Notes under the pieces: model-generated
Told to the model about the DNA's origin: nothing
Databases searched by the model: none
The model's input: only the letters and a program-made list of their open reading frames with translations
Shown: positions 3,526-8,648 of the stretch, piece after piece
Layout: each line of letters begins with the position of its first letter
Position numbering within the stretch: position 1 is the first letter of the stretch
Translations under genes and position numbers: made by a program
DNA from: a virus
Taxonomy: Duplodnaviria; Heunggongvirae; Uroviricota; Caudoviricetes
Length of the DNA stretch: 42,586 nucleotides
Strand: one strand, 5' to 3'
IMG/VR virus record: IMGVR_UViG_2541047870_000002

Positions 3526-4350
3526 TCAGGCGGTGAAAGTACCAATAAAGGTTTCTACTTTGCTGTCTTTGAATTTCTCAACAAGCAGATCGCGAAATTC
3601 GTTAGCCATTTCTTCCTGCACCGCCTCCATCTGAATAATGCGCAGAACAAGTACAGGACGATCGCCAGTGATAATGCTGAGGCGTAATTTAAAAGAACGT
3701 TCTTTCAGACCTTCAAACGGAACGCATTTAAATTCAAATGCCACTGGCATAATGTCTTTGGTCTTCGCTTCGACAGACTCCATCAGGGAGCGTTTGCCGC
3801 TGAAGTCATTATCTTCAAAATCAGCGGTCTGGTTTGCTTCAATCGTGATTTTACGGACAGCCGCAGCCGCTTTTGTTGCCTGGATAGCGTCACCATTAGC
3901 ATCAAAACCCACAAGGTAGTCGGCCCAGTCTTCAATCCATTCTGCCAGTGACTTCTGGGAGTTACGCTCGCTGTTAACAGACAACAGTGCAGAGAACGGT
4001 GCTGTCTTTTTCAGTTTGAGAGTGGCGGTGTTATCTGCGTGACCTGGTTCATCAATAGTACCCAGGTTAAGCACACTGACGGCACGCATATTATCAGCAT
4101 CGATAAAGCAGCGGGTGCCTTCATCTGCAAGATCTTTAGAATAACGGGTAAAGTCATCGATGCTGGCAGTGGAAAGCGCACCACGGAAACGGAAGCGATT
4201 TAAATTAAATTTTTCCAGATCATGAATGCGGAAATTCTCAGGCAATGCCACAGCATCGGCACCAATCTTACTGATAATTTCATTAACACCCTGAGCAGAA
4301 ATAAGAGCATGGATTTGATTAATTGCGGTTGCGTCTAAGTTCTGAGACAT
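3526..4350 (-). CDS. YfdQ-like prophage protein (DUF2303-type), function unknown
   Basis: 274-aa ORF; resembles from memory the CPS-53 prophage YfdQ family; gene order YfdP-like/YfdQ-like/HD hydrolase matches that prophage. Confidence 0.55.
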
Positions 4351-4914: not shown

Positions 4915-5179
4915 TAAAAAGGACGGTACCAGCCGGAAGCAAGGGTACAAGCTGGTACCGCCAAGACTACACACAGCATAAAGTTGTGGTGCCGGGTGCC
5001 TCCCGGTGCCTGGCGAAGGTTGCACACCAGGCGGGTGGGTATCCACAGAAGGTCGACTGTCAGCCTCAACCTTAACCCGCGTGCGCTGAGCAGCATTCAC
5101 CACAACGCTAAGGATTCTCTCTGGTTGAAAATACTTAGCTGTTATGTGCCTGCTTTTAGCCACATCAGGCGAGGTGGAC

Positions 5180-5246: not shown

Positions 5247-5681
5247 ATGTCCGGTAATATCTACACGTTGTACAAATCCCACTGTGAAAATGTTGGAAAG
5301 TATCGGGGCATTGAAATCAGTGGGATAGTGTCATCAGTCGAAATAAGCAAAGTGGAATCAAGGGCAACATTACTTACTCTTCTGGATCTTGTCTTACATG
5401 AGCACCGGAAGAAATTCGGCACTCCCTATAATCAGTTGAATGGGAAAAAGGCTCTGGTTCACCTTATTCTGATGAAGCATCACTGGATGCCAAAACAGAT
5501 TAATGAGATGAAATTTGATGAACTTCTTCTTTCAATTCAGGATGAACTCACACTTGATAAAATAAGCGTAACCGCCCAGAAATTTTTAGATTATCGAGAC
5601 TGGAGATCACAAATTCATCACTTTGATGATTTTGACGAAAATGAATGGGATCCTAATTTGTCTGCACAATATCTAAAGTAA
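5247..5681 (+). CDS. hypothetical protein (reverse-oriented moron within the leftward early operon)
   Basis: 144-aa ORF with AAGGA RBS; AT-rich; no recognisable motif. Confidence 0.5.
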   Translation: MSGNIYTLYKSHCENVGKYRGIEISGIVSSVEISKVESRATLLTLLDLVLHEHRKKFGTPYNQLNGKKALVHLILMKHHWMPKQINEMKFDELLLSIQDELTLDKISVTAQKFLDYRDWRSQIHHFDDFDENEWDPNLSAQYLK

Positions 5682-5859
5682 CATCCTGTGATAAAACCGT
5701 GATTTCCTGATCCAGTTTTTTTAAGGAGTCTATTGTTTCCTGTCGATAAGACAGCACTTCACGAAGCTGGTTTATAGCTGCCAGCTTCTTTGTCATCCAC
5801 TCATAAATTTCCTCATCTGTGTAGCCAGGCGCGACGATTTTGGGTTCTGTTTTGTGCAT
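5653..5859 (-). CDS. small acidic protein, first gene of leftward early operon (N-position)
   Basis: Strong RBS GAGGAGGTG 5 nt before ATG at 5859; 68 aa; no arginine-rich motif; 3' end overlaps the convergent 144-aa gene. Confidence 0.5.
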   Translation of the reverse strand: MHKTEPKIVAPGYTDEEIYEWMTKKLAAINQLREVLSYRQETIDSLKKLDQEITVLSQDVTLDIVQTN

Positions 5860-5904: not shown

Positions 5905-5942
5905 TTGTTAAAGAGCTAAGCGTCCTGTAGGGCGCTTTTTTG
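5905..5942 (-). promoter_or_regulatory. boxA-like element (GCTCTTTAACAA on minus strand) with adjacent hairpin: candidate nutL; the same hairpin plus T6 reads as an intrinsic terminator on the plus strand
   Basis: Minus-strand RNA would read …GCGCCCUACAGGACGCUUAGCUCUUUAACAA…; hairpin 5919-5936 followed by TTTTTT on plus strand. Confidence 0.4.
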
Positions 5943-6016
5943 TTGCTAACGAATCATCCTGGACTTCATATGCCCCAGGCGGCTACTTCGTGGGTGTCCT
6001 GCCTGTTCGTTGTCTT

Positions 6017-6080
6017 AACACCTTTAAGTTGTAATTTAGTTGTGGTTTTGAATGTTGTCAACAACTTTATGTGGTTTGAA
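6017..6080. promoter_or_regulatory. left operator cluster (OL-like): repeated AAGTTGT / ACAACTT half-sites
   Basis: Motifs cacctttaagttgt, tagttgtgg, caacaactttatgtgg are near-identical to motifs in the cI-cro intergenic region. Confidence 0.5.
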
Positions 6081-6124
6081 CGAGTAGCCAAGGAGTGCAA
6101 GGATTATCAAAAAAAGGAGGTTGT

Positions 6125-7015
6125 ATGGAAGACGCGCTTTACGCTTTTAATTACACACAGAACCGGGACAAGTTATTTGCTAACTTGATTAGCATCATTG
6201 ATGGAATCATTGCAGATGGAGTTGTCCGTGAAGAGGAGGTTCTTTACTTAGATACATGGTTACTTGAAGCAAAGCAGATTATCAATAATGGAGTTATAAA
6301 AAGTCTATCTGCTCGGGTGTCGGATATTCTTGCGGATGGAATAATCACATCAGAAGAACGTGATGACCTTAAAAATAGCCTTCTCCAAATACAGAGGGAA
6401 ATTCTTGATATCCCTGAAATTGATTTTTACTCCAAGGATGTAGATGTCCATTTACTTAATGGACTATGTAAAGGATTAATTGCTGATCGGAACTTAACTC
6501 AAGAAGAAATAAGATATCTTAATTGGTGGCTTGAGCAAAATGGAGCTTTGAAGAACAACTACCCAGGAAAAAAACTTTATGCACTTGTAAAGGAAATTCT
6601 TAAAGATGGTGTTATTACTGAAGATGAGAGTTTAACTCTACATAAGGCATTAGTAGACTTCACAGGATGTGACTTGGAAAGTGGGGTGGTGGATGGTTTG
6701 GCGACCAGGCTGCCTATTGATGTAGGGGCTTCGATAGAGTTAGAGGGTAAAACCTATTGTCTTACAGGCACTTTTGTTGCAGGAAAGAGAGCCGTAGTTG
6801 AAAATTTGATTAAAAATGCTGGTGGGAACATCAGTAGTGGAATTACTCAAAAGTTGGATTTTTTAGTAATTGGGACGCTTTCCTCCCGTGATTGGAAATT
6901 CTCTAGTCACGGAAGGAAGATCGAAAAGGCTATATCTTATAGGGATGATAATGGTGCAAAACTTAAAATTATTTCTGAAGAAATGCTTTTCGATGCATTA
7001 CCAAGTTCGCGATGA
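6125..7015 (+). CDS. TerB-like tandem repeat protein with C-terminal BRCT domain (immunity-region moron)
   Basis: Four repeats of the ADGxIxxEExxxL type in the N-terminal two thirds; C-terminal …GKTYCLTGTFVAGKRAVVENLIKNAGGNISSGITQKLDFLVIG… resembles the LigA-type BRCT fold; AGGAGG RBS before ATG at 6125 (ORF track starts at GTG 6095). Confidence 0.55.
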   Translation: MEDALYAFNYTQNRDKLFANLISIIDGIIADGVVREEEVLYLDTWLLEAKQIINNGVIKSLSARVSDILADGIITSEERDDLKNSLLQIQREILDIPEIDFYSKDVDVHLLNGLCKGLIADRNLTQEEIRYLNWWLEQNGALKNNYPGKKLYALVKEILKDGVITEDESLTLHKALVDFTGCDLESGVVDGLATRLPIDVGASIELEGKTYCLTGTFVAGKRAVVENLIKNAGGNISSGITQKLDFLVIGTLSSRDWKFSSHGRKIEKAISYRDDNGAKLKIISEEMLFDALPSSR

Positions 7016-7684
7016 CCAGAATACCCTACCTATAACATGAATTCTGGCTCGTCTATCTTCAAAGGTGAGTATTTCATCTGGGTACTCATCTTTGTTGAAG
7101 CTTCTAAGAATCAAGCCACCGTCAGGTAAGTTGATAAGTATTTTAACCCTTAGCAATACACCATCTCGTACGGCATAAAGATCGCCATCACGAATAGGAA
7201 CGGTTTGAGAAATATCAACGGCAACAAGATCTCCATTATTGAGAACCGGTAATAAACTGTTCCCCCATATTTGTACGATCTTGGCATTAGATGCACATAC
7301 GCCAGATTTTCTCAAATCTGCTCTTCTTAACGGAAACCAGTCAATAGCTGATTCAACTATTTCAGCCAGACATCCGTTACCTGCCGATAACTCGACATCT
7401 AAAACAGGAATGTTTACGAAAATATCGGGGTCTAATGCGGTGCTTTCTGCTTCTTTTACAACAAGATCAGGTATGGATGCGTTGTCTTCAATACCAAGTT
7501 GTAACCACTTTTGTGATACACCTAAAACTTTTGCAATTTCTTTAATTTTGCGCGGTTGTAGAGTTTCGCCATTCTCTATTTTGGCTACAGATTGTTGTGA
7601 AAGTCCAATTTTTTCAGCTAGTTGAGCTTGGCTCATGCCAGCTTTCTCTCTACCTATCTTTAATCGTTCTGCCAGTGTTTTCAC
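6998..7684 (-). CDS. cI: CI-like prophage repressor (N-terminal HTH_XRE, C-terminal S24/LexA-like self-cleaving peptidase)
   Basis: HTH …MSQAQLAEKIGLSQQSVAKIENG…; C-terminal peptidase-like domain; GTG start with GAGGG RBS; divergent from cro. Confidence 0.85.
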   Translation of the reverse strand: MKTLAERLKIGREKAGMSQAQLAEKIGLSQQSVAKIENGETLQPRKIKEIAKVLGVSQKWLQLGIEDNASIPDLVVKEAESTALDPDIFVNIPVLDVELSAGNGCLAEIVESAIDWFPLRRADLRKSGVCASNAKIVQIWGNSLLPVLNNGDLVAVDISQTVPIRDGDLYAVRDGVLLRVKILINLPDGGLILRSFNKDEYPDEILTFEDRRARIHVIGRVFWSSRTW

Positions 7685-7710
7685 AACATATCCCTCTCTT
7701 TTTTGATGAG

Positions 7711-7800
7711 GTTACAACTTTATGTTTTAGCTTTCCAACACCTAAAAGTTGTGGTAAAAGTTGTTAATGTTGTATTCTTGCAGCTCGTAACAACTTAACT
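7711..7800. promoter_or_regulatory. right operator cluster (OR-like) with divergent promoters for cI and cro
   Basis: Repeats ttacaactttatg, cacctaaaagttgtgg, aaagttgttaatgttg, cgtaacaactta between cI and cro starts. Confidence 0.55.
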
Positions 7801-7819
7801 ACCAAAAAAGGAGAAAGCT

Positions 7820-8068
7820 ATGACACCTGAGCAATTAGCCTTATCGGAGGCAATCGCTCTGGCTGGTGGTCAATCAGAATTGGCTCGGAAGCTCACAGCC
7901 AGCAGCGGTCATTTAGTAAAGCAACAACATGTCTGGAACTGGTTGAACAGAGAAAAGCGTCCCCCTGCAAAGCTCTCGATATTCATTGAAAAGACCACTG
8001 GCATATCAAAAGAAAAATTACGTCCAGATATTTTTCAAAAGATTAAAGATTCATCAGATGAAAAGTAA
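7820..8068 (+). CDS. cro: Cro-like HTH regulator
   Basis: 82-aa ORF divergent from cI, AAGGAG RBS, small basic HTH protein. Confidence 0.65.
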   Translation: MTPEQLALSEAIALAGGQSELARKLTASSGHLVKQQHVWNWLNREKRPPAKLSIFIEKTTGISKEKLRPDIFQKIKDSSDEK

Positions 8069-8090: not shown

Positions 8091-8648
8091 GTGGGTAAGC
8101 ATCACTGGAAAATAGAAAAACAGCCTGAGTGGTACGTGAAAGCTGTCAGAAAAACTATCGCGGCGTTGCCGGGGGGTTACGCTGAAGCCGCTGACTGGCT
8201 GGATGTAACAGAGAACGCTTTATTCAACCGCCTTCGTGCAGATGGCGATCAGATTTTCCCGCTGGGATGGGCAATGGTTTTACAGCGTGCTGGTGGCACT
8301 CACTTCATTGCTGATGCTGTGGCGCAGTCTGCAAATGGCGTCTTTGTGTCTCTTCCTGACGTCGAGGATGTGGACAACGCCGATATTAACCAGCGTCTGC
8401 TGGAAGTCATTGAACAGATCGGCAGTTATTCAAAACAGATTCGTTCAGCAATCGAAGACGGTGTAGTGGAACCGCATGAGAAGACAGCAATTAACGACGA
8501 GCTGTATCTCTCAATTTCGAAGCTGCAGGAACATGCAGCACTTGTCTACAAAATTTTTTGCATTTCAGAAAGTAATGACGCCCGCGAGTGTGCAGCTCCG
8601 GGCGTCGTGGCGTCGATTGCTTCTGGTTGTGGAGAAACTAACGCATGA
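8091..8648 (+). CDS. CII-position regulatory protein (YmfL-like), function uncertain
   Basis: GTG start with AAGGAG RBS just after cro (ORF track 7986..8648); position equivalent to cII. Confidence 0.4.

Follow-up and report, generated by a model that had tools for sequence, protein, structure and literature searches.

The viral DNA of IMG/VR record IMGVR_UViG_2541047870_000002 (42,586 nucleotides, the whole of which is called the window here) is an SfIV/SfV-like lambdoid prophage of Escherichia coli. Two clusters of a shared DNA motif, at positions 6017-6080 and 7711-7800, enclose the genes of a BRCT-domain protein and a CI-like repressor. These clusters are very likely the left and right operators (OL and OR) of a lambdoid immunity module, whose repressor carries a DNA-binding domain resembling that of phage 434. 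In our view, the module has the usual lambdoid pair of OL and OR, with an operator specificity that is new. Its modestly novel feature is that one left operator, L2, is shared by the leftward early promoter pL and a candidate promoter of the repressor-linked BRCT gene. The elements concerned are listed below with their strands; PR is the predicted promoter of the Cro-like gene, PRM that of the repressor gene, and fractions give the match of each operator to the palindrome described below.

5918-5937 (+): hairpin of a strong rightward intrinsic terminator, followed by a T-run
6013-6017: mosaic junction, where the left arm common to SfIV, Kati and SfV ends and the immunity module starts
6018-6032: operator L1, ACACCTTTAAGTTGT, 13/14, at about -6 to +9 of pL
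6033-6038 (-): pL -10, TAAATT (TAGATT in some relatives); predicted start near 6026
6037-6043 (+): lone half-site L1', TAGTTGT, overlapping the pL -10
6056-6061 (-): pL -35, TTGACA
6061-6075: operator L2, ACAACTTTATGTGGT, 12/14, the most conserved left-side element
6076-6104 (+): candidate BRCT promoter, with TTGAAC (6076-6081), a 17-bp spacer, TG (6096-6097) and the -10 AAGGAT (6099-6104); predicted start at about 6111
6125-7015 (+): gene of the BRCT-domain protein, 296 aa
6998-7684 (-): gene of the CI-like repressor, 228 aa, GTG start
7709-7738 (-): candidate PRM, with -35 TTGGAA (7738 to 7733), an 18-bp spacer and -10 TAACCT (7714 to 7709); predicted start at about 7702
7714-7728: operator R1, ACAACTTTATGTTTT, 12/14, OR3-like, overlapping the -10 and spacer of the candidate PRM
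7738-7752: operator R2, ACACCTAAAAGTTGT, 12/14, OR2-like, overlapping the PR -35 by 4 bp and the candidate PRM -35 by 1 bp
7749-7778 (+): PR, with TTGTGG (7749-7754), an 18-bp spacer and TATTCT (7773-7778); predicted start at about 7785
7758-7764 and 7767-7773 (+): tandem half-sites R3 (AAGTTGT) and R3' (ATGTTGT), period 9, in the PR spacer and at the edge of its -10
7790-7796 (-): lone half-site R4, ACAACTT, at about +6 to +12 of PR
7820-8068 (+): Cro-like gene of the YdaS family, 82 aa (Pfam YdaS_toxin, E 7.8e-15)
8091-8648: CII/YmfL-like gene, just downstream of the Cro-like gene

A preliminary description of the window had pointed to near-identical motifs built from AAGTTGT/ACAACTT half-sites in both clusters, and the copies were indeed present in both. 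The window contains 12 exact copies of the half-site, compared with 5.6 expected from shuffles. Six of them, at 6026(+), 6061(-), 7714(-), 7746(+), 7758(+) and 7790(-), fall within the 154 bp of the two clusters, where about 0.02 would be expected (Poisson P for at least six ~1e-13), and the search of the whole window found no similar density in the remaining 42.4 kb, which holds only six more. Longer strings are also paired between the clusters: AACACCTTTAAGTTGT (6017-6032) corresponds to AACACCTAAAAGTTGT (7737-7752), and ACAACTTTATGT is identical at 6061-6072 and 7714-7725. While the motif itself stood, its description as a bare 7-mer required refinement: a 15-bp near-palindrome, ACAACTT-N-AAGTTGT, is the likeliest unit of binding. 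With up to two mismatches allowed, the palindrome ACAACTTNAAGTTGT occurs five times in the window, compared with 0.14 times in shuffles, and four of these five occurrences lie in the clusters. Furthermore, relatives carry either ACA(C/T)CTTTAAGTTGT or ACAACTTTAAGGTGT at L1, such that the single mismatch moves to the mirror position in the other half, which supports dyad symmetry of the site. The fifth occurrence, the intergenic 15-mer ACAGCATAAAGTTGT at 4973-4987 (two mismatches), was rejected as an operator since the DNA there is 95-98% identical to heteroimmune phages, and the match is probably due to chance.

The preliminary description further called the clusters consistent with OR and OL of the CI-like repressor, a reading supported by their overlap with the predicted PR, PRM and pL. 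The cI and cro genes are divergent, with operator copies over both PR and PRM, and the second cluster lies over pL. The pL sequence (TTGACA-17-TAAATT) agrees with the consensus at 10 of 12 positions and had the top score, 14.8, in a rough weight-matrix scan. The -10 of PR is a perfect TATAAT in most relatives, and that of the candidate PRM is TAAAAT in Providencia and Proteus. In the right cluster, R2 on the -35 of PR, together with R3, R3' and R4, would block the transcription of cro. R2 lies next to the -35 of PRM as well, with its centre at about -43 from the favoured candidate, and would activate PRM as OR2 does in lambda or 434, and R1 over the PRM -10 would give negative autoregulation in the manner of OR3. 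All known lambdoid repressors repress PR, activate PRM from OR2 and then repress PRM (PMC5977221). In the left cluster, L1 and L1' over the start and -10 of pL would repress this promoter. Each cluster contains two full dyads, R1 and R2 being 24 bp apart and the centres of L1 and L2 43 bp apart. Three dyads per cluster at a spacing of about 23-24 bp were not found, and the rest of the clusters consists of lone or tandem half-sites.

Comparison with relatives showed that the sites and promoter hexamers are conserved across genera while the spacers are not. The relatives were taken from E. coli genomes, from IMG/VR contigs with BRCT homologues of 73-92% identity, and from assemblies of Providencia, Proteus, Serratia and "Pseudomonas lundensis" with repressors of 57-71% identity. 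Every collected relative had both clusters in the same arrangement, about 1.65 kb apart, with a BRCT homologue between them. Pairwise identities were calculated from 14 non-redundant OL regions and 12 OR regions. On the left, identities were 0.89 for L1, 0.97 for L2, 0.96 for the pL -35 and 0.88 for the pL -10 with L1' (6033-6043), but only 0.29 for the left flank and 0.32 for a 12-bp stretch of the pL spacer (6044-6055). The OL alignment had no insertions or deletions between 5999 and 6104, and L1' was conserved in an OL alignment of 16 relatives. On the right, identities were 0.99 for R1, 0.95 for R2, 1.00 for R3, for the GTTGT core of R3' and for R4, 1.00 for TTGGAA and 0.92 for the PR -10, compared with 0.33 for the spacer of fixed length (11 bp) between the PR -10 and R4. 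Since the four-fold degenerate sites of cI in the same genomes were only 0.39 identical, the islands of operators and hexamers are under strong selection.

The motif also changes with the repressor. Shigella phage SfIV, like SfV-type prophages, shares the overall genome type and the early-left arm, and the matches of SfIV, Kati and SfV to the window end at 6013-6016, one or two bases short of the left cluster. Beyond the common CCTGCCTGTTCGTTGT, SfIV has GGTACAT-type repeats around a TTGACA -35 of its own, with related repeats between its repressor gene and cro, and it lacks a BRCT gene. The heteroimmune SfIV thus swaps the motif exactly at the mosaic junction. Because it has another repressor and other repeats in both OL and OR, the motif travels with the repressor.

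The repressor consists of an N-terminal helix-turn-helix domain (Pfam HTH_3, 1.4e-15) and a C-terminal, LexA-like S24 domain of the self-cleaving type (Peptidase_S24, 1.1e-14, full length), and inspection of its translation revealed Ala-Gly (LSAGNG), GNS and RVK motifs. The top PDB match of its N-terminal domain, and its closest solved relative, is the DNA-binding domain of the 434 repressor (E 4e-13). The recognition helix is QQSVAK, compared with QQSIEQ in 434. The repressor retains the Gln-Gln-Ser, which all of the examined relatives share, and an Arg at the position of Arg43, whereas Gln33 of 434 is replaced by Lys, which implies an immunity specificity different from that of 434. In co-crystals of the 434 repressor, the outer ACA of ACAA-N6-TTGT is recognised by Gln28 and Gln29, and a helix of this type fits the ACA...TGT ends of the present sites. 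Sites that end in the same way, are one base longer and differ inside are the pattern expected of a 434-like protein with a new specificity. The two systems also share the pairing of one good and one poorer half in their dyads, an S24 domain and divergent cI and cro. However, the present site is 15 bp long with the half-site ACAACTT, compared with the 14 bp of ACAA-N6-TTGT, and where 434 has three evenly spaced dyads, each cluster here combines two dyads with lone or tandem half-sites. The Cro-like protein is of the YdaS type, with a weak match to the Xfaso1 Cro structure (3bd1), and does not have the 434 Cro fold by sequence. Judging from these sequences, the module would work like that of 434 and represent another immunity type, with neither the operator nor the recognition helix of a 434-homoimmune phage.

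CI would accordingly be expected at the predicted L and R sites, where Cro probably binds too. At the four conserved lone half-sites (L1', R3, R3' and R4), the bound protein may be CI engaging only one of its domains, or else Cro or the CII-like protein. That R3/R3', R4 or other half-sites belong to a YdaS-type Cro or a CII/YmfL-type activator and not to CI seems improbable. The R3/R3' and R4 copies form no dyads, a CII-like gene lies just downstream, and lambda CII binds direct repeats. On the other hand, these copies have the same sequence as the strong half of each of the four dyads and cover PR in the way that repressor sites would, and lambdoid Cro proteins normally share the CI operators. 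A single dimer-site model for R3, R3' and R4 was rejected, since the R3'-R4 spacing is N16 in the Escherichia type and N5 or N4 in Providencia and Proteus. In the Providencia-type module (L061), a tandem half-site, AAGTTGTCAAAGTTGT, occurs twice, at 2340-2355, about 45 bp left of its L1, and at 4102-4117 in OR; a direct-repeat type of site seems to exist beside the dyads. As for the idea that the shared motifs are a chance repeat or a functionless remnant of a duplication, only the shortness of the motif speaks for it. It is exceedingly improbable given the clustering (P ~1e-13), the identities of 0.9-1.0 at the sites against 0.39 at synonymous positions and the change of motif with the repressor in SfIV, and the conservation pattern effectively refutes it. 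Two other candidate sites were discarded. In the palindrome ATGTTGT-CA-ACAACTT (6052-6067), the ATGTTGT at 6052-6058 is unconserved and the likeness comes mostly from the pL -35. A half-site within cI (7496-7502; an 11-bp inverted match to 7710-7720), considered as a distal operator, is lost at synonymous positions in relatives.

The second question, which the preliminary description had raised with caution, is whether the left cluster governs the BRCT gene as well. This gene needs a promoter between about 5945 and 6110, since the terminator at 5918-5937 blocks transcription from upstream. The top rightward candidate upstream of the gene is a weak promoter, TTGAAC-17-TGc-AAGGAT, with a weight-matrix score of 9.0. 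Its hexamers are conserved in four genera (-35 TTGAAC or TTGATT; in Proteus, the -10 is AACTAT at the same position and spacing), and its 17-bp spacer is variable in sequence and invariant in length. Pairwise identities were 0.86 for the -35 and 0.81 for TGn with the -10, compared with 0.41 for a 14-bp stretch of the spacer (6082-6095). L2 overlaps the upstream edge of the pL -35 by one base and takes up all 14 bp that separate the two back-to-back -35 hexamers. Its centre is at about -42 relative to pL and at about -43 relative to the candidate BRCT promoter. The distance from operator edge to -10 is 24 bp both for L2 and the BRCT promoter and for R2 and the PRM candidate. Likewise, about 85 bp separate the predicted starts of pL and the BRCT promoter, and about 83 bp those of PR and PRM. 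OL would be built like a second OR, with two back-to-back promoters about 85 bp apart and one shared operator, and L2 would occupy a PRM-type activating position if the predicted BRCT promoter is real. In lambda OR, divergent promoters about 83-85 bp apart also share an operator that adjoins a -35 and has its centre near -42 or -43; the difference is that the present module would have this architecture at OL as well.

Distant BRCT homologues are found directly downstream of repressor genes and co-directional with them in Vibrio phage K139 (L055 2280-5308) and Pseudomonas phage phi1 (L057 1569-3112), which are unrelated temperate phages, and in three IMG/VR contigs (L053, L060 and L062), and the K139 record annotates cI-orf2-glo-int as a lysogenic operon. 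The BRCT family therefore appears to be expressed together with the repressor. In the window, the BRCT and repressor genes overlap tail-to-tail by 18 bp (6998-7015), without a terminator between them, and as a result each transcript must run antisense into the other gene. The BRCT gene here converges on cI, so that activation by CI at L2 would give the same result, lysogenic co-expression. We tentatively favour this reading, in which CI at L2 activates the BRCT promoter and the gene is expressed in lysogens, over constitutive expression and over repression, while rating its chance as slightly below even. A somewhat more doubtful possibility is that OL acts as a second two-way switch, in which one repressor dimer at L2 would help silence pL and at the same time turn on the divergent BRCT promoter.

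Several observations weigh against this picture. A promoter score of at least 8 is reached at 138 sites in the window (both strands), so that a score of 9 is not rare, and the predicted BRCT leader is only about 14 nt long. The geometry of L2 relative to pL is about the same as that relative to the BRCT promoter, and taken alone it predicts activation of a promoter that needs repression; because L2 sits at an activating-type distance from pL too, repression of pL must rest on L1 and L1'. Only four dyads are credible, and a simple dimer model of the 434 type leaves R3, R3', R4 and L1' unexplained. PRM, the model for the proposed activation, is itself ambiguous, with two candidates scoring 7.15 and 7.09 in the weight-matrix scan. 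The lower-scoring one (TTTAGG-18-TAAAGT, 7.09) is the less likely, its -35 lying inside R2 and being unconserved in Proteus. It should also be noted that, with its fair -35 and extended -10, the BRCT promoter may work without an activator. This last point leads to a rather unlikely explanation, namely that the left cluster is an OL for pL only and that the BRCT promoter is autonomous and constitutive, as in accessory prophage genes. L2 would then neither help nor hinder the BRCT promoter and would stabilise pL repression by cooperating with L1. An extended -10 TG combined with a reasonable -35, as found here, often makes a promoter activator-independent, and the 43 bp between the centres of L1 and L2, about four helical turns, are compatible with cooperative binding. 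However, the -35 adjoins L2 with invariant spacing in four genera, the distance from operator to -10 is the same as at the PRM candidate, and the -10 AAGGAT lacks the usual first T.

Less likely still is repression of the BRCT promoter by repressor that binds L2 and forms a loop with L1. In that case, the BRCT gene would be an early lytic gene, transcribed upon induction and divergently from pL, with a transcript antisense to cI. The operator adjoins the core promoter, and with convergent genes that overlap by 18 bp without a terminator, rightward transcription would oppose cI expression. However, L2 overlaps neither the -35 nor the -10 of the candidate promoter, and the distant homologues in K139 and phi1 are co-transcribed with repressor genes, pointing to lysogenic expression.

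The BRCT protein has two helical-bundle repeats followed by a C-terminal domain with the BRCT fold; a fold search with the N-terminal part returned generic helical bundles only. The family is often mislabelled as NAD-dependent DNA ligase in databases. This label was rejected here, since only the C-terminal BRCT region matches, the adenylation and OB-fold domains of a ligase were not found, and the scores of the LigA models (20-28 bits) lie below their cut-offs of 369-1051. The PADLOC model of the candidate defence system PDC-S48 gave a partial match, of residues 119-251 to model positions 239-377 of 411 (E 2.4e-7). In about two dozen E. coli genomes, an internal deletion of about 720 bp leaves a BRCT remnant (for example at 3476-3625 of L002 and 3475-3624 of L003); strain RM9088 is one of this deletion lineage. 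In this lineage the TG and -10 of the candidate BRCT promoter are altered, whereas L1, L2 and pL are intact. Since OL, the repressor gene (82% DNA identity) and OR are all intact in the deletion genomes, the BRCT gene is dispensable for immunity.

The link of BRCT family members to repressor genes recurs in phages of Escherichia, Serratia, Providencia, Vibrio (K139 orf2) and Pseudomonas. In K139, orf2 is a full-length BRCT homologue, with 33% identity across 95% of its length, and neighbours the repressor gene within the unit annotated as lysogenic, and the paper on the K139 family does not discuss its function. K139 differs in being P2-like, in that its BRCT gene runs in the direction of cI and does not require a separate promoter, and in its unrelated repressor and operators. 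Lambda also has an accessory gene between pL and cI; however, the lysogen-expressed rexAB genes are co-transcribed from PRM, whereas a separate candidate promoter precedes the BRCT gene, which runs towards cI. If the two-way switch is true, the family with BRCT domain and helical repeats would be a lysogen-expressed function, possibly in phage exclusion or in the sensing of DNA ends. The conserved, repressor-linked BRCT family is a candidate for altering the properties of lysogens or defending them against other phages. Beyond this family, the analysis sets out the operator code and the arrangement of promoters for an immunity type that is carried by about 1% of complete E. coli genomes and by related prophages of several genera.

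The module 6017-7819 was found at a coverage of at least 80% in 48 of 5,426 complete E. coli genomes (~1%); E. coli 2012C-4221, RM7190 and NCTC9038 are among the strains with the module. In the phage collection, no near-identical counterpart of the immunity region was found to the right of 6016, and the nearest repressors had at most 45% identity. The literature and database searches made turned up no description of the present immunity type, and those on the motif, PDC-S48 and BRCT proteins in prophages found nothing relevant in the literature. An assembly labelled Pseudomonas lundensis (JAWQUI010000002.1, L005) contains this enterobacterial-type module and has almost the same OL and OR sequences as IMG/VR locus L041, which could be due to horizontal transfer or assembly contamination. 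To the left of the module lie two further genes:

5247-5681: ECs1072-family gene, closed by the rightward intrinsic terminator
5653-5859: leftward gene of 68 aa

An Rfam scan of the window gave no matches. When the hairpin at 5918-5937 is read on the leftward pL transcript, the next sequence is GCTCTTTAACAA (5917 to 5906), which is nearly the same as TGCTCTTTAACAA, the boxA antitermination element of rRNA operons. The segment 5906-5937 on the pL transcript may be a nut-like site, which is shared with SfIV.

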